A stretch of 64,000 nucleotides of DNA from Gammaproteobacteria bacterium. GTDB lineage: Bacteria > Pseudomonadota > Gammaproteobacteria > Steroidobacterales > UBA11654. Position numbers and translations under genes: made by a program. The notes beneath the pieces were generated by a model. It made no database searches. It had not been told where the DNA came from and worked only from the letters and a program-made list of their open reading frames with translations. The stretch is taken from contig JAPYQN010000004.1 of assembly GCA_029941465.1 (NCBI GenBank), positions 13,111-77,110 of the forward strand. Direction: 5' to 3'. Shown piece after piece: positions 169-63,788 of this stretch (the first letter of the stretch is position 1; the number at the start of each line of letters is the position of its first letter).

Positions 169-897
169 ACTTACTGCTTCCTTTCTTGGGACATTCAATT
201 GATCCAAAGGATGAGGCAAGACAGATCTTTCGCTTAACTTCTCTGGGTCTCTAGCAAATGACATCTCTATTGCCCTCGGATTACCCTGATTATCAACCCT
301 GTTATTGTTTGGGTGTACATGAACTAATTTAAGCTCAAAATTATTTATGAAATTCCTTATTTCACCTATGTGATCAGAAATGTTGTGCAACTCTATAACC
401 ATTCCAGATAAAAGATCTGAATTTAATTTTATTTCATCGAGGATTCGATACTCATAGCCTTCTATATCAATTTTTAAAAAAATAGGTTTTTTATTAATCC
501 GTTCTAATGTTTTTTTTAAATTGGTATGGCCCTCTTCTTCAGTCCCAATTTTTTCATAAAATAGCACTGCTTTATCTCTAAAAAAACGCATAAATTTTTT
601 GTATATTTTAACTGCGTTACATGGGGCCTTCAATCGACCAATTAAAACACTTAAAAACCTTTTAATAAAAAACTTAGGCCAGAAAAATCCTCTCACTGAG
701 TGATCATAAGCATTTATCACTATGTCTTTATGGGTAATAAAATCTTCTTCAAATCTCCAATTTTTTCCAATACCCATGGAAATAAGAGCTTCGGTTTGTT
801 CTATGGATTTTGATTCTACAAGATAACCGCCGTCATTATGACCTCCGATTCTCAGGAGATTGTATTCACCTTGAGGTTTAAAATTTGATGGCAACAT
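148..897 (-). CDS. FkbM-family methyltransferase (family-level call)
   Basis: 249 aa. The block PIFLKIDIEGYEYRILDEI and the overall size resemble FkbM-type SAM methyltransferases. Abuts the upstream gene (stop/start adjacent at 897/898). Confidence 0.55.
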   Translation of the reverse strand: MLPSNFKPQGEYNLLRIGGHNDGGYLVESKSIEQTEALISMGIGKNWRFEEDFITHKDIVINAYDHSVRGFFWPKFFIKRFLSVLIGRLKAPCNAVKIYKKFMRFFRDKAVLFYEKIGTEEEGHTNLKKTLERINKKPIFLKIDIEGYEYRILDEIKLNSDLLSGMVIELHNISDHIGEIRNFINNFELKLVHVHPNNNRVDNQGNPRAIEMSFARDPEKLSERSVLPHPLDQLNVPRKEAVSLRFINS

Positions 898-57926: not shown

Positions 57927-58952
57927 TTACTCCAAAAACTTTAATAGGCCTGCTGATTTGAGGATATCATTTAGCTCGGTTTTATCTGGGATTGCTGCAT
58001 ATTCTTCTAACAATGCTAAAAATGATTTGGTGTGATATTTTTGGACTGCGGTCACTTTATGCTCAAAAATATTGCCATTAATAATTATAGACAAACTGTC
58101 CTCTCCGTTCTGTATGGCTTTGTTGTTAGCGCTTAACCATGGCATGAAGACTTGGGCCATTTCTGTGATTAATATTGGCATTATTGTATTTTCCAAGCTG
58201 CTCCATTGTTCAAAATCTCCTTCGTTTTTAGGGCTCAACATGCGGGCTATCCATTGTTTTACATTGGGGTAGCCGCCTTCAATGATTCTTTTTCCACTAA
58301 CATCAGTCCAGGCGTTATACACCTGCCCCCAAAGACCAAAATCTGCTAAAGATGGTCTCGCGCCAAAAAGGTATGGCCTGTGGTGTAAGTGGTTATCCAA
58401 CAATCCCAATAGGTTAGTGAATGACCTCTCAATTTCTCCCTCAGTTATAGGGTTTGACCCTATAACCCAAAGCCTTGTCTTCATTCTTTTTTTAAATATT
58501 TTAGCGGCTTGGTTTTTTAATATTTTATGTAAGATTGGCAGCCTTTTAGCCCAACCAGGAACAAATAACTCACCAAAGCGCTTGCTTGCAGCGGTTTGAT
58601 CTGCTTTGTATCGCCAACGGTAATGAAACATTGGTTTCACAACCCATTCGTCAGCATACTCTTCAAAAAATCTGCTGATAAAGGCTGTGTGTATTTCGTT
58701 TGGAATTATGCTGTTTTGGGGAAATTTTTCTTCTAACGATTGTATGATTGGCGTTGAGTCCTGGAGTACCTCTCTCTCGGGGGTTAGCACCAAAGGGATA
58801 ACCTGAATTTTTGCGAGTTTATTAAACTCTTTTTGTGTTTGTTGGTTTCTTATAATCCATTGATGAGGGATTTCCTTGTAACGAAAATAAGACCTCACCT
58901 TAACAGAGTAAGGTGACAACTCAGCACCATATATTAAATAGTCTTTGGTCAT
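57927..58952 (-). CDS. Glutathione S-transferase-like protein (thioredoxin-fold N-domain, long C-terminal domain)
   Basis: LSPYSVKVRSYFRYKEIPH...VIPLVLTPEREVLQDSTPIIQSLEEKF. 341 aa, about 120 aa longer than canonical GSTs. Confidence 0.55.
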   Translation of the reverse strand: MTKDYLIYGAELSPYSVKVRSYFRYKEIPHQWIIRNQQTQKEFNKLAKIQVIPLVLTPEREVLQDSTPIIQSLEEKFPQNSIIPNEIHTAFISRFFEEYADEWVVKPMFHYRWRYKADQTAASKRFGELFVPGWAKRLPILHKILKNQAAKIFKKRMKTRLWVIGSNPITEGEIERSFTNLLGLLDNHLHHRPYLFGARPSLADFGLWGQVYNAWTDVSGKRIIEGGYPNVKQWIARMLSPKNEGDFEQWSSLENTIMPILITEMAQVFMPWLSANNKAIQNGEDSLSIIINGNIFEHKVTAVQKYHTKSFLALLEEYAAIPDKTELNDILKSAGLLKFLE

Positions 58953-60247
58953 AATTCGTTTTTGTTTTTATAAAGAGCGCTCATTAACTCAAAGACCACC
59001 GGCGTTAATTTTGTTTCGCTCATTTGTTTGTCTTTAAAATAACTGTTCCACACCACCACATAGTCCTCAGTGGGGTTTACTATTAACCCTTGTCCAGCCC
59101 AACCTCCTTTATAAATATTGCCATTCTCAAAAACCATATCCCACTGATCTATATTGTGTTTAAGCCCGGGAATGAGACTAGGAACACCTGGTTTTGTTAT
59201 AAGGGATGGCCGTCCTGAGTAGAGCAATTTATTAATATACTTTTCTGAGATCAGCCGCTTATCAGATACCTTATTAAAGCTAGGGGTAAACAATAACCCA
59301 AAACGGGCAACATCTTTTGGTCTAGCTAAAAACCCGCCATGCGTGACTGGGACGCCAAACCTGGGTGCAAAAAAAGCGGCGTCTGCCTCGGCACCAATTT
59401 TGGTCCAAATCATTTCACTTAGAGCGTCTTGGAACTGAAGCCCTGTTATTTTTTCAACCATCCACCCAAGAATAAATGTGTTAACCCCTGAGTAATCAAA
59501 TTGTTTTCCTTGTTCGGTAAACTTACCAACCTTTAGTTTTGCAACAAACTCATATGGATTGTCTGGAGACTCTGCGGTCCAAAAACCGTCTCCTATTGCA
59601 GAAGAATACACATAGTAACAAGCTTGTTTGTTTTCATACTCCTCGGAACATTTAATGCCTGTTGCCATATCGAGAATATTTTGCACCAGGATCCCTTCAA
59701 AATCTGAGCCTTTTAATTCTGGTAAATACAGATCGATTGGGAGCATTGTGTCAATCTTGCCTTGCTCCTCCAACATCGCCACCAGCGTTGCTACAAAGAC
59801 TTTTGCAACTGACCAAAAAATGGGCTTTTCATGGGGTTTCATTCGCGGATAGCTCTCATAAACTATTTCACCCTTATGAACAATGATCATTGATATTGCA
59901 GTTGAAAGATCGCTGTGCAGAAAACTCTCAAATGCCATCGGTCCTTTAGGTGTTTGTATTTTAGTGTTAGCGATACGTTTAGAGATATTTAGAGGCAAGT
60001 TTTTTACTGGCCCGTTTCTGTAAACGGTGTTTGTTGGAAAAATTTTATTAAGGTTTTTAAAGTTCCACAACATATCCTCACCATAAACAGTCCACCATAT
60101 GTCATCGGTGGGTAATTTTTTGATTTGCTCCCTTGTGATATCAACTTCCGCGTTAACAGAAATGTCAGCAACACTGTGCTGCATAGAAAGCAATACCATT
60201 ATATAAAAACAATATTGAGTTTTTTTGTTAAGCATGTGATTAAACAT
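58949..60247 (-). CDS. Secreted beta-lactamase-fold serine hydrolase (class C/EstB/aminopeptidase-like)
   Basis: N-terminal signal-like segment. S-x-x-K motif in FWSVAKVFVATL. 432 aa. Start overlaps the upstream stop (TAATG). Confidence 0.6.
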   Translation of the reverse strand: MFNHMLNKKTQYCFYIMVLLSMQHSVADISVNAEVDITREQIKKLPTDDIWWTVYGEDMLWNFKNLNKIFPTNTVYRNGPVKNLPLNISKRIANTKIQTPKGPMAFESFLHSDLSTAISMIIVHKGEIVYESYPRMKPHEKPIFWSVAKVFVATLVAMLEEQGKIDTMLPIDLYLPELKGSDFEGILVQNILDMATGIKCSEEYENKQACYYVYSSAIGDGFWTAESPDNPYEFVAKLKVGKFTEQGKQFDYSGVNTFILGWMVEKITGLQFQDALSEMIWTKIGAEADAAFFAPRFGVPVTHGGFLARPKDVARFGLLFTPSFNKVSDKRLISEKYINKLLYSGRPSLITKPGVPSLIPGLKHNIDQWDMVFENGNIYKGGWAGQGLIVNPTEDYVVVWNSYFKDKQMSETKLTPVVFELMSALYKNKNEL

Positions 60248-61191
60248 TATATTTGTTGTGTTGTTTCAGTCCTAAAAAATTTGAAAAAGCACCATGTAGA
60301 AAACGCGCTTAACAGGTGCCATATTGCGTGGGGTTGCAACCAAGCATCAGGGTTGCAGAGCATCTCTGACCATTGATTTAACCAAATGGTAAAGGCGGTT
60401 ATGTATGACGCCATACCCAAGAAAAACCAAGGGTTATAGGTTCTTTTAATTCTTGGTGCGTGGGGCGCAAAAACAGCTGGGAGCCAAAATAAAACCACCC
60501 ACCAATACTCGGCAGGATTGGACAGAATTTCACTGGGCAGCGTTCCAAACATTGCTGCAACCACAAACCCCACTAACCCAGAAACCCACCTAAAAACTGG
60601 TGTCCAAAAATTAAATAGTGTTTCTGAAATTATCCATAGTCCTATTGATAAACCAAATAAATCTAAACCAATTCCAAGGTCATCCCCGTACACCCATCTT
60701 GCATACCCATAAAGAACAACGATGGAAAAATAAATTACAAGAAAGCGCTCTGAGCTCCAGCGCCCCATTTCTTTTAGGTTATAAAGCCATGGGAAGATGA
60801 TGTACATAACCATACTTAGGTTGTCTGCCCATTGCCCCCATTCAGTGTGGGTTCCATGCATCAACATTGAGCCAGGACCCAAGTAAATGGCAGCCCCTGC
60901 ATAAAGCATGCTTAATTTATTTAACCCACTGAATGTGTTTTGTTGTTGGTTGGTTGGGCCTATGCTTAAAGCTCTAAACATATAAAGACCGGCAATCATA
61001 AACCCTAGGTTGCTGAGTGCATTTGAGGGCTCCCTAAAGATTCCATCACTAACTCTTTCACACCACCTAGAAACATCTCCAGCTGATAATCCAGGCTCAA
61101 ATGACAAAATCAGTCCGCTTGAGGCCAGTATGAAATAGGCCAGCAAAAACAACGCGCTTAAAATAACGGCTATTGGGAAAGCTTTATTCAT
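60247..61191 (-). CDS. 7-TM alkaline-ceramidase-family (PF05875-like) membrane hydrolase
   Basis: RWCE...REPSNALSNLGF, GSMLMHGTHTEWGQWADNLSM and PHAIWHLLSA are collinear with the DWCE/NTxSNL, His-81 and HxxWH zinc-site blocks I recall from human ACER3. About 7 TM. 314 aa. Confidence 0.65.
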   Translation of the reverse strand: MNKAFPIAVILSALFLLAYFILASSGLILSFEPGLSAGDVSRWCERVSDGIFREPSNALSNLGFMIAGLYMFRALSIGPTNQQQNTFSGLNKLSMLYAGAAIYLGPGSMLMHGTHTEWGQWADNLSMVMYIIFPWLYNLKEMGRWSSERFLVIYFSIVVLYGYARWVYGDDLGIGLDLFGLSIGLWIISETLFNFWTPVFRWVSGLVGFVVAAMFGTLPSEILSNPAEYWWVVLFWLPAVFAPHAPRIKRTYNPWFFLGMASYITAFTIWLNQWSEMLCNPDAWLQPHAIWHLLSAFSTWCFFKFFRTETTQQI

Positions 61192-61225: not shown

Positions 61226-61585
61226 TTATTGGTGCGTTCGGTTGCCATCAAAAACACAAACAAAATACAGCTCGTCTTCGGAGTCATTAACAACTCTGTG
61301 GAATTTGCCGTCCTCTATTAAAACAACATCCCCTTGCCTGACTGCAAAATCTTCATTGATGGTAATGTCGTCGGCATCTTGGGTTCCAAGGAGCATTCTA
61401 CCCATGCCCTTAACAAAAATATAAACCTCTTCTTGTCCCGCATGGAAGTGCCCTGTGGTTTGTTTTCCTGGGTTTAGGTTGGTGCTGCTCACTACTAGAT
61501 TCTGTAAATCTGTATTGTCTTTTACAATATAGCGGTCATCTTCTTTAACTAAAGCGCCACCTACATCGTTGATATTAATTTTCAT
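61226..61585 (-). CDS. Small cupin protein with a cupin-type phosphoglucose-isomerase-like metal motif
   Basis: 119 aa. TTGHFHAGQEEVYIFVKGMGRMLL...FHRVVN (His/Glu metal ligands). Confidence 0.55.
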   Translation of the reverse strand: MKININDVGGALVKEDDRYIVKDNTDLQNLVVSSTNLNPGKQTTGHFHAGQEEVYIFVKGMGRMLLGTQDADDITINEDFAVRQGDVVLIEDGKFHRVVNDSEDELYFVCVFDGNRTHQ

Positions 61586-61679: not shown

Positions 61680-63788
61680 TCACCATAATCTAGGAACCTC
61701 TTCTTGCCATTCTTTTTCTCTAATCACCTCTCCGTTTTTTTCCAGTATCCTCTTGAATTTATAATAGAATGTTTTTTCATCGCTACTGAAATCGAGTATT
61801 CCGGTCCATTTTAAGCCTTGGTCTTTTTGTTCTTCTTTTAGTTGAACGGTAGTGGTGTAGGTGCTTAGAACGCTGGACAGCGCTGGCGTAACATCATTCG
61901 CTGTGTAGGTGACTAACTCCTTATAACTGCGAACGCCCCAGGGGTATTGGTCACTGCCCGAATTTCTGGCCAGTATCGTTGTGGTTCCGGTGCGTTCGTC
62001 TCGCTGAGTGTCTGACAATTCCGGATAGCCAGAGATGGTGCCAGAGGCGATGGAATTATAGTTGGGTAATTTCGGCGGGGGCGCTACAGGATTGGGGAAA
62101 GGATTTGCCATTGGTGTTGGATTGATAGGCACCGGTAATGTCAAAAATGACTTCAATTGGTTGTTCGATCTGATTGAGGTCGTCATGGGGTAGGGAGAGG
62201 GCCAGATCATGGGCCATTGGGCGTTGTTGACTGACACTCGTATCTTATGTCCTTTTTCAAACGTCCAAGAGGTGGCATGTAACTCGACATTAAGTGTATA
62301 AACTTTGTCCTCGGTCAAGCGAATTGGTTTTTCCGAAGATTCCACATGGTTGGCATTGAAGCCGGCTCCAGTGATGAAAGTAACCATGCCGTTGGGAGCG
62401 ACGTCGGATAATCGTACAAACCAGTTGGCTGCTGCTGCATCAGCGGTGGTTTGCAAAGTCACCTGAGGCATACCAATGATGGCCAATCTTTCGATGATAG
62501 GTTCTGAGTCGTAGACCAGACTGTGTGCATCTACAATTTTTTGATCCGGTTTTAAATCGCCCCACCACATCGCTGTGCCAGTGGCGTCTGGGGTAGTGGG
62601 ATAGTAAGTTAGTGAATGCTCAAATTGTGCGGGTGTGGCGACTAAATGGTGGTTCTGGTTGAAATACAACACTGAATTCCTGGTTTCTGGCCACTGAGCC
62701 GAGGTGTACCAACGACCGGGAATATTCGTCAGATCCTCTCCCGGCTCGTGCCAATCGCGTTGGTAGTAATAGACGGACGGTTCATTCAAAATGCCTGTGT
62801 CTTTGCCCTTCATCCAATGGTCCAACCAACGCACGGCCATCTCTCTCCACTCGATAGCAGGCTCTGGATAAGCGTTGTGTGGGAAAGTATGATTCCAGGG
62901 GCCTAGTAGCGCCTTATAAGGTACATCAGCATTCTGAGCCATTCTGGGCACGATATCCCGATAACCATCATAGTAACCGCCGATTACGAAAACAGGGATA
63001 TCTATCAAGGAGTAATCTGTGTTTAAAGACGCTCTGTTCCAGAAAGGACCATCCACTTGTTGTTTCTTATACTTCAATAGCCAAGGGGCTGTATCAAAAC
63101 GGTCGCTAAAGTAACTTCCTCCAATATCAAAATCAGGCGACCCGGGTATTATGTTATCTATGTCCATCATCAGCTCATAGGTATCAATGTGGTGCATTCC
63201 ATCAATGAAATGGACGTCATCTTCATAGATATCGTCGGTAGACATTAACGATATAATGGTTTTTAACGCAGGAGGGTGACGCATCGCCATGTGGAGTCCG
63301 TTGAACCCACCCCACGAAATTCCAAGCATTGCTATGTTGCCATTAGAAAAATGCTGTTTGGACAACCAATCAATTACCTGTAAGCCGTCTAATTGTTCTC
63401 GTTCCGAATACTCTCCATCCACCAATTTCCCTTCACTGCGCCCAGTTCCTCTGATATCAACTCGGGCAACAATGTAGCCGCGCTTAACAAAATAATGGAA
63501 AGTGTCAAGTCGGGAAGGTCTGCTCTCATCCTTACGATACGGCAGATATTCCAGTATCACCGGAAGGCGTTCGTTATTTTTCAGGTTAATGGGCACATAA
63601 AGATCGGCAGCCAATTTGATGCCATCTTTCATAGGTATTAAGATTTCTTTAATTTGTACGTCCCCCGCTACAACTGCGCTTGTTTGTCCGTATAGTGCTT
63701 TTGGAATCAACAATACGAACAGCAGTACGAACGAAAATGCGAGCTTTGTCAGAATCTTTTTTTTGCCGATAAAAATGGTATAAAACAT
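61680..63788 (-). CDS. CocE/NonD-family hydrolase (S15 X-Pro dipeptidyl-peptidase family), N-terminal signal/anchor
   Basis: 702 aa. Nucleophile elbow MLGISWGGF. The layout is an alpha/beta hydrolase domain followed by a C-terminal jelly-roll. Confidence 0.7.
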   Translation of the reverse strand: MFYTIFIGKKKILTKLAFSFVLLFVLLIPKALYGQTSAVVAGDVQIKEILIPMKDGIKLAADLYVPINLKNNERLPVILEYLPYRKDESRPSRLDTFHYFVKRGYIVARVDIRGTGRSEGKLVDGEYSEREQLDGLQVIDWLSKQHFSNGNIAMLGISWGGFNGLHMAMRHPPALKTIISLMSTDDIYEDDVHFIDGMHHIDTYELMMDIDNIIPGSPDFDIGGSYFSDRFDTAPWLLKYKKQQVDGPFWNRASLNTDYSLIDIPVFVIGGYYDGYRDIVPRMAQNADVPYKALLGPWNHTFPHNAYPEPAIEWREMAVRWLDHWMKGKDTGILNEPSVYYYQRDWHEPGEDLTNIPGRWYTSAQWPETRNSVLYFNQNHHLVATPAQFEHSLTYYPTTPDATGTAMWWGDLKPDQKIVDAHSLVYDSEPIIERLAIIGMPQVTLQTTADAAAANWFVRLSDVAPNGMVTFITGAGFNANHVESSEKPIRLTEDKVYTLNVELHATSWTFEKGHKIRVSVNNAQWPMIWPSPYPMTTSIRSNNQLKSFLTLPVPINPTPMANPFPNPVAPPPKLPNYNSIASGTISGYPELSDTQRDERTGTTTILARNSGSDQYPWGVRSYKELVTYTANDVTPALSSVLSTYTTTVQLKEEQKDQGLKWTGILDFSSDEKTFYYKFKRILEKNGEVIREKEWQEEVPRLW

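Follow-up and report, generated by a model that had tools for sequence, protein, structure and literature searches.

A bacterial member of the alkaline-ceramidase family with a complete putative zinc-hydrolase site that probably faces the periplasm

We analysed a stretch of 64,000 nucleotides from a Gammaproteobacteria bacterium (assembly GCA_029941465.1, contig JAPYQN010000004.1; this whole stretch is called the window below). On the minus strand of the window, an open reading frame (ORF) that runs from ATG to TAA (60247..61191) codes for a 314-amino-acid (aa) membrane protein, here termed the ceramidase-like protein. Within the CREST superfamily it belongs to the alkaline-ceramidase branch (PF05875) and, by analogy with human ACER3, is likely to be a zinc-dependent intramembrane lipid hydrolase that works in the manner of ACER3, with an active site that would open to the outer leaflet or the periplasm. 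Full-length alignment with 50 homologues backs the start codon, and the GC content of the gene (~0.40) is like that of the adjoining genes. The nearest genome records are marine metagenome-assembled genomes (MAGs) named 'uncultured Woeseia sp.', whose ceramidase-like proteins are 89-90% identical to that of the window.

Family membership and catalytic residues

The ceramidase-like protein matched the PF05875 (Ceramidase) profile at 47.8 bits (E=1.6e-12), above the gathering score of 32.5 bits, with residues 43-307 aligned to profile positions 9-231 of 259. A sequence-only reading of this DNA, made without database searches, had proposed an alkaline-ceramidase homologue from ACER3 motifs, and the profile match confirms this proposal. 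In a scan of the single protein no competing Pfam family was credible at E-values up to 10, and neither HlyIII nor SID-1 appeared. A search of NCBIfam gave no model for the protein.

Residues were compared in an alignment (A2) of the query, human ACER3 and 19 close and distant bacterial relatives. The ACER3 sequence was validated against PDB entry 6g7o, to which it is identical over residues 2-244; the ACER3 strings cited in the sequence-only reading were likewise correct. All 21 sequences of A2, human ACER3 included, matched PF05875, and weak matches to HlyIII or SID-1 (E about 1e-4) came from single members only. The three blocks that had been quoted as collinear with ACER3 are present in the protein as RWCERVSDGIFREPSNALSNLGF (residues 42-64), GSMLMHGTHTEWGQWADNLSM (residues 107-127) and PHAIWHLLSA (residues 287-296), except that RWCE and REPSN are separated by 7 residues and not by the 8 given.

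In the ACER3 structure H81, H217 and H221 are the ligands of the zinc ion, the catalytic water is kept in place by S77 and D92, and a disulfide links C21 to C196 (PMC6303388). Mutagenesis of ACER3 has shown that its activity depends on these residues: of six point mutants, five were dead, and S77A was 600-fold less active (PMC9436119). Each of these positions has an equivalent in the ceramidase-like protein. The zinc ligands H81, H217 and H221 correspond to H112, H288 and H292, which are invariant in A2, as is D123 (ACER3 D92), while S108 (ACER3 S77) is nearly invariant. The spacings from Ser to His (+4) and from His to Asp (+11) are the same in the query and ACER3. In the N-terminal loop, E45 (ACER3 E22) and N57 (ACER3 N36) are invariant, W43 and E54 correspond to ACER3 W20 and E33, and C44 (ACER3 C21) is nearly invariant together with its counterpart in the core, C279 (ACER3 C196).

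We then counted these residues in 207 full-length relatives (120 close and 87 distant). H112 and D123 were kept in all 207, H288 in 206, H292 in 204 and S108 in 203, which agrees with the earlier statement that all three zinc histidines are retained and adds the catalytic Ser and Asp to it. The Cys44-Cys279 pair was found in 203 of the 207; both cysteines were lost jointly in two of the four exceptions (Fisher p=0.0016). The putative catalytic residues fall on model helices equivalent to TM2, TM3 and TM7 (TM, transmembrane) and follow the CREST signature, with S108-x3-H112 on core TM2, D123 on core TM3 and H288-x3-H292 on core TM7. As judged from these alignments, the catalytic set of the family is complete, comprising the three presumed zinc-ligand positions, S108 and D123, and the cysteine pair predicted to tie the N-terminal loop to the core is kept. 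The ceramidase-like protein is thus probably active as an enzyme.

A further cysteine was observed among the distant relatives: in 40 of the 87 (P0165-P0270) the aromatic-Cys-Glu motif is directly preceded by another Cys (e.g. CYCE). This extra cysteine occurs neither in the subfamily of the ceramidase-like protein nor in ACER3.

Structure model and membrane orientation

An AlphaFold2 model built on 51 sequences had a predicted local distance difference test (pLDDT) value of 91.3 and a predicted template modelling (pTM) score of 0.88. It contains 10 helices, which are the 7-TM core of the family, one additional helix at the N-terminus and a pair of helices inserted into the core (Table 1). The earlier description of a 7-TM protein therefore holds for the core and falls short for the whole chain. 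The two additions differ in their distribution: the hydrophobic N-terminal helix, which ACER3 lacks, is found in 82 of the 87 distant bacterial relatives, whereas the two-helix insertion is present in only 9 of these 87 and is largely or wholly missing in 63.

With this model as query, a Foldseek search of the PDB returned ACER3 (6g7o) as the first match (E=5.4e-4), followed at ranks 2-29 by SID-1/SIDT proteins or adiponectin receptors only, so that the 29 best matches are all CREST proteins. Unrelated 7-TM proteins were listed only beyond an E-value of 0.2. The CREST fold that the sequence-only reading expected is supported by this result.

To orient the protein in the membrane, we averaged the net charges of the loops over the 51 sequences. 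Predicted cytoplasmic segments were positive (N-terminus +1.3, residues 140-150 +2.1, residues 195-201 +1.4, residues 241-253 +2.6 and C-terminus +1.4), and predicted periplasmic segments were negative (residues 25-61 -1.6, residues 165-177 -0.2, residues 215-229 -2.0 and residues 273-286 -1.5). Taken together, the additional N-terminal helix and the positive-inside rule place both termini in the cytoplasm and the catalytic face in the periplasm. The WCE loop, H112, D123, C279 and H288/H292 are thus probably located at the periplasmic face, opposite to the situation in ACER3. In ACER3 the same face looks into the cytosol, and its disulfide lies in a reducing compartment, as the authors of the structure remarked (PMC6303388). 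A periplasmic placement would put the conserved cysteine pair of the bacterial protein into an oxidising compartment, which such a pair would fit.

We also considered that residues 4-24 might be a signal peptide only. This was rejected in view of the hydrophobic stretch of ~20 residues, the invariant Y19 and the model pLDDT above 90. Under the signal-peptide reading, the loop that follows would likewise be outside the cytoplasm.

Table 1. Features of the ceramidase-like protein, its gene and neighbouring genes (positions refer to the window)
Feature	Residues	Position	Strand	Evidence
Gene of the 314-aa membrane protein (PF05875, alkaline-ceramidase family)		60247..61191	minus	ORF; Pfam 47.8 bits, E 1.6e-12; 1,942 homologues
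Extra N-terminal TM helix	4-24	61120..61182	minus	AlphaFold2 model helix, pLDDT 92-98; not in ACER3 (alignment A2)
RWCE...REPSNALSN loop	42-61	61009..61068	minus	A2 alignment and conservation counts
Core helices	62-77, 92-114, 117-143, 147-171, 178-194			AlphaFold2 model
GPGSMLMHGTHTEWGQWADNLSM, carrying S108, H112 and D123	105-127	60811..60879	minus	ACER3 alignment; model helices 92-114 and 117-143
Insertion of ~50 residues with two added helices, subfamily-specific	195-245	60457..60609	minus	Gap in ACER3 and ~270-aa relatives; AlphaFold2 model helices 198-214 and 219-240
Last core helices	254-272, 287-306			AlphaFold2 model
Cys279, partner of Cys44 and counterpart of ACER3 C196	279	60355..60357	minus	Alignment A2
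QPHAIWHLLSA, with H288 and H292 where the last helix starts	286-296	60304..60336	minus	ACER3 alignment; model helix 287-306
Cupin gene, 119 aa, upstream		61226..61585	minus	Pfam Cupin_2; adjacent in 7 loci, same position in Woeseia-like clade
Gene for a secreted beta-lactamase-fold serine hydrolase, NylB-like, downstream		58949..60247	minus	PF00144; PDB 1wyb, E 1.6e-38
APH-type kinase gene, 362 aa		56025..57113	minus	NCBIfam PRK06148, N-terminal part
Class-III PLP enzyme gene, 408 aa		54792..56018	minus	NCBIfam PRK06148, C-terminal part

Distribution of the family

A word-indexed search found 1,942 homologues, and annotations were taken from the 120 best of them. All 120 carried a PF05875 annotation, and the few with names were called 'hypothetical protein', 'ceramidase' or 'ceramidase domain-containing protein'. 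The family is thus already labelled in databases, and the ceramidase-like protein adds to a known kind. With an E-value limit of 1e-3, an exhaustive profile search yielded 2,456 clusters at 50% identity. Among species-representative genomes there were 227 confirmed matches; the best 80 of these came almost entirely from marine bacterioplankton, in the form of uncultured MAGs or single-cell genomes, and their lineages included SAR86, OM182, PS1, OCS116, Rhodobiaceae, SAR202/Chloroflexota, Acidobacteria and Acidimicrobiia.

In a survey of the CREST superfamily from 2011, two sets of bacterial proteins named 'hypothetical groups 1 and 2' were placed next to the alkaline ceramidases and put forward for tests of ceramidase activity (Pei et al., PMC3146951). 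As described there, these groups are mainly proteobacterial, cluster with the alkaline ceramidases and carry the SxxxH and HxxxH motifs, and we compared our protein with them on the basis of this description; the survey gives neither a 10-TM architecture nor an orientation or marine distribution for them. The earlier view that bacterial members are essentially uncharacterised is in line with this survey, which among the papers searched was the only one to mention PF05875, and with our literature searches (see Discussion).

Gene neighbourhood

In the window the ceramidase-like gene is part of a string of genes on one strand, in the order cupin, ceramidase-like, NylB-like, 341-aa GST-like, TIM-barrel, APH-type kinase and class-III pyridoxal-phosphate (PLP) enzyme, where the string ends. 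A gap of 34 nt separates the cupin gene from the ceramidase-like gene. The junctions from the ceramidase-like gene onward measure -1 (TAATG), -4, +5, -29 and +6 nt; in the first of them the ATG of the NylB-like gene overlaps the ceramidase-like stop codon. The NylB-like protein (432 aa) has a signal-peptide-like N-terminus and is most similar in the PDB to 6-aminohexanoate-dimer hydrolases. PRK06148 is a model of a kinase/aminotransferase fusion of ~1015 aa; its N-terminal part is matched by the kinase and its C-terminal part by the PLP enzyme. In the PDB the PLP enzyme was closest to phospho-lyases (5g4i, 4e-103; human ETNPPL 6tor, 3e-97), compared with 1e-51 or worse for transaminases. By homology, the two proteins are a split kinase/ammonio-phospho-lyase pair predicted to act on an amino alcohol. 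Promoter and terminator scans gave hits no richer than in shuffled sequence. Elsewhere in the window lie genes of an ordinary chromosomal core (gltBD, ggt, acs, priA, argS, topA, aroE and xthA).

To see how far this arrangement extends, genes were called and clustered in 89 loci plus the window region (WIN). The kinase/phospho-lyase block stands beside the ceramidase-like gene only in WIN, L001-L003 and L011-L015, which form a Woeseia-like clade. These loci also have xthA, aroE and topA downstream in common, so that the linkage is explained by descent. In the 78 loci outside the clade, none of the kinase, TIM-barrel and phospho-lyase genes was found within 10 kb (78/78). The NylB-like gene recurred there once, in the unrelated locus L034, where a homologue with 50% identity is two genes away from the ceramidase-like gene, and a distant GST-like gene recurred twice (L070, L089). 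The block also varies within the clade: L001-L003 and L012 carry an M20 peptidase gene (about 456 aa; L001 10990-12360) between the ceramidase-like and NylB-like genes, and L013 has no NylB-like gene. The insertion and the loss indicate that the block is modular.

We next looked for a neighbour conserved across the whole family; in 30 dereplicated lineages, 117 immediate neighbours of the gene were scanned against Pfam. No Pfam family was present in more than 4 of the 30 lineages. ETF alpha/beta recurred in one SAR86 group and beta-lactamase-fold proteins in 4 lineages; elsewhere the gene adjoins thiolase/DUF35 genes, or those for proteorhodopsin, ETF or TonB receptors, or genes with no relation to these. 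Across the family the ceramidase-like gene behaves as a stand-alone gene. The sequence-only reading had taken the gene context as a handle on function. With a block specific to one lineage and a gene that otherwise stands alone, the operon is a weak handle.

Several further arrangements were observed. In the window, a CocE/NonD (S15) hydrolase gene (702 aa, signal-like N-terminus, 61680-63788, minus strand) has no counterpart in any of the related loci, although these have the remainder of the block in common with the window, and it coincides with a rise in GC (0.49 at 62-63 kb compared with about 0.40 around it); it is possibly a lineage-specific acquisition. In L004 (3485-10963) and L005 the gene of a 67%-identical homologue is located directly downstream of a proteorhodopsin gene, which is itself preceded by a carotenoid/retinal cluster (polyprenyl synthase, phytoene desaturase and synthase, lycopene cyclase and BCD); an alpha/beta hydrolase gene and pyrroloquinoline quinone (PQQ) dehydrogenase genes come after the ceramidase-like gene. 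Three BNR-repeat (sialidase-like) proteins flank the homologue in L009 (2597-15072; 57-58% identity), and a 366-aa Exo_endo_phos protein comes after it. We considered the latter as a sphingomyelinase, which would imply glycosphingolipid breakdown, and discarded this candidate because neither the PDB nor NCBIfam supported it. In nine alphaproteobacterial loci of PS1, OCS116 and Rhodobiaceae type (L008, L018, L022, L035, L036, L039, L043, L048 and L053), genes for DUF35/ACP_syn_III_C, thiolase, DUF6285 and an APH kinase follow. This kinase is of a different family from that of the window, and the DUF35/thiolase set, though lipid-related, is probably lineage synteny.

Discussion

The ceramidase-like protein of the window shares with ACER3 (6g7o) and the ACER, Ypc1 and Ydc1 ceramidases the Pfam family, the putative zinc triad with its Ser and Asp, the W-C-E loop with its Cys partner and equivalent helices, and ACER3 is the best structural match of its model in the PDB. 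If it works as ACER3 does, a Zn2+ ion would be held by H112, H288 and H292. A zinc-bound water, placed by D123 and S108, would attack the carbonyl group linking a fatty acyl chain with a polar head group, with D123 activating the water and S108 stabilising the oxyanion. The reaction would set a fatty acid free and leave the head group deacylated; if the substrate is ceramide-like, this head group would be an amino alcohol. In the proposed arrangement 10 TM helices would span the inner membrane with both ends in the cytoplasm, and the catalytic centre would lie with the Cys44-Cys279 pair at the periplasmic face. From there, the enzyme would act on lipids of the outer leaflet or on lipids arriving from outside. 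By analogy with characterised family members, the substrate class is most likely an N-acyl (amide-linked) lipid such as ceramide. The distribution of the family, which crosses phyla and is bound to pelagic marine habitats, would favour a substrate tied to the pelagic niche.

There are differences from the eukaryotic enzymes. ACER3 has 7 helices, a cytosolic N-terminus and a site that faces the cytosol, whereas the ceramidase-like protein has 10 predicted helices and a site that would face the periplasm. The loop from the Cys partner to the HxxxH motif has only 9 residues, compared with 21 in ACER3. Shorter bacterial PF05875 proteins of ~270 aa have the N-terminal helix, the xCE loop, GxGSxxxH, the Asp, the Cys partner and QxHxxWH in common with our protein; they lack the two-helix insertion and mostly have Gln in place of E54 and Tyr or Phe in place of W43. 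The adiponectin receptors, SIDT1/2 and SID-1 have the 7-TM zinc-hydrolase core in common with it, but they belong to other Pfam families and have large extra domains or receptor roles. SID-1 likewise has an extra pair of helices between core helices.

Several observations weigh against the proposed assignment. The resemblance to ACER3 is remote, with about 19% identity in A2, and BLASTP of the ceramidase-like protein against ACER3 alone was not significant (E=0.23). Since the pairwise comparison fails, the collinearity of the motifs with ACER3 is statistically meaningful only by way of the family profile. An hhalign comparison with the single ACER3 sequence gave a probability of 6.5% (E=0.0056) over the N-terminal half only. 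A search of the PDB with the subfamily profile retrieved neither ACER3 nor any other CREST structure, and a PDB sequence search with the protein itself gave no CREST structure. The Foldseek TM-scores were low (0.36-0.53, with a root-mean-square deviation of 15 A), which can be attributed to the remoteness of the relationship, the fusion partners (BRIL) of the solved structures and the extra helices. The topology depends on the charge rule, and the loop of residues 78-91 (-0.6) does not fit it. Our literature searches yielded no biochemically characterised bacterial member of PF05875 and no marine ceramidase. Amidase activity is not guaranteed either, because CREST includes esterases (Per1) and proteins of disputed activity. 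Weighing profile, alignment and fold together, we find that the resemblance to the alkaline ceramidases appears real, though remote.

The calcium site of the ACERs also argues for caution. In these enzymes it consists of the motif D19-W-C-E-x-N24 and A32-E-F34, which is reported to be strictly conserved from yeast to human (PMC6303388). W43, C44, E45 and E54 of this motif are retained in the ceramidase-like protein, but the Ca2+ ligands D19 and N24 are not: the D19 position is taken by R42 (R/G/S/K across the subfamily), and there is no conserved Asn at the N24 position. Moreover, the position of E33/E54 is Gln in 70 of the 87 distant bacterial relatives. Calcium dependence is therefore doubtful, and calcium regulation as a property of the family seems unlikely from these residues.

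Other explanations have to be considered. A role that keeps the CREST fold without catalysis, as a receptor, channel or haemolysin-III-like pore, is very improbable. Non-hydrolytic roles have been reported for some CREST families (SID-1, myomaker/TMEM8 and haemolysin III), and the Foldseek query TM-score of SID-1 proteins (0.52) was slightly above that of ACER3. However, H112 and D123 are retained in 207 of 207 sequences from many phyla, with H288, H292 and S108 each in at least 203, and Pfam assigns the protein to Ceramidase with no match to HlyIII or SID-1 in the single-protein scan at E-values up to 10. If the protein is an enzyme, it might act on the cell's own lipids in a housekeeping function, remodelling or turning over amide-linked aminolipids, bacterial ceramides or, like Per1/PGAP3, ester-linked lipids. 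We regard this as possible, though rather unlikely. It would agree with a single gene in variable chromosomal contexts with no transporter or regulator attached, with a GC content like that of the surroundings and with the presence of the lipid-remodelling esterase Per1 in CREST; in addition, bacterial ceramide biosynthesis includes a periplasmic step, and Caulobacter makes sphingolipids under phosphate limitation (PMC11087976). In contrast, the presence of the gene tracks the pelagic marine habitat across at least five phyla, including some with monoderm-type envelopes, which looks more niche-like; no lipid-synthesis genes were linked to it in any locus examined, and the closest profile is that of the ceramidase family and not that of Per1.

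The neighbouring genes suggest a different possibility, namely that the ceramidase-like protein catalyses the first step of a pathway encoded by the operon. An N-acyl amino alcohol (ceramide, N-acylethanolamine or similar) would be split, and the amino alcohol would be phosphorylated by the APH-type kinase and then deaminated and dephosphorylated by the PLP phospho-lyase. Within the window this succession of amide hydrolysis, amino-alcohol kinase and phospho-lyase is coherent: the genes are arranged head to tail with tight junctions, the PLP enzyme is far nearer to solved phospho-lyases than to transaminases, and it matches, together with the kinase, both ends of one fusion model. The block was also found behind ceramidase-like genes whose proteins are only 65-67% identical to that of the window (L014, L015). 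Nevertheless, this reading is unlikely. The linkage is limited to the one clade with common xthA, aroE and topA, for which inheritance of synteny suffices; the kinase, TIM-barrel and phospho-lyase genes were absent within 10 kb in all 78 loci of other lineages; no neighbour family recurred in more than 4 of the 30 dereplicated lineages; the content between the ceramidase-like gene and the kinase is variable; and the kinase/lyase pair is found elsewhere as a self-contained fusion.

We therefore return to the zinc-dependent lipid hydrolase with an outward-facing site as the preferred explanation. In its most far-reaching form, it would be an outward-facing zinc amidase, spread among pelagic marine bacteria of several phyla, that strips fatty acid and nitrogen from N-acyl lipids in seawater such as algal or viral sphingolipids, and in the Woeseia-like lineage the released amino alcohol would feed the kinase and phospho-lyase route. 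This scenario is speculative, and we consider it quite improbable as a whole. If true, it would describe a degradation pathway for sphingoid bases or amino alcohols that is distinct from the sphingosine-1-phosphate lyase route.

To our knowledge, intramembrane alkaline ceramidases are known biochemically from eukaryotes only. The protein of the window, which is well conserved and easy to model, represents a bacterial family of very large size, with close relatives that are common in SAR86, SAR202, PS1 and other abundant ocean bacteria. The inverted orientation that we propose and the abundance of the family in ocean bacteria are points that merit experiment. If active, the ceramidase-like protein would add to marine lipid turnover an enzyme that has so far gone unrecognised, and would offer a compact prokaryotic model for the mechanism of CREST hydrolases. 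The predicted inversion, if true, would mean that one catalytic core can serve either face of the membrane.

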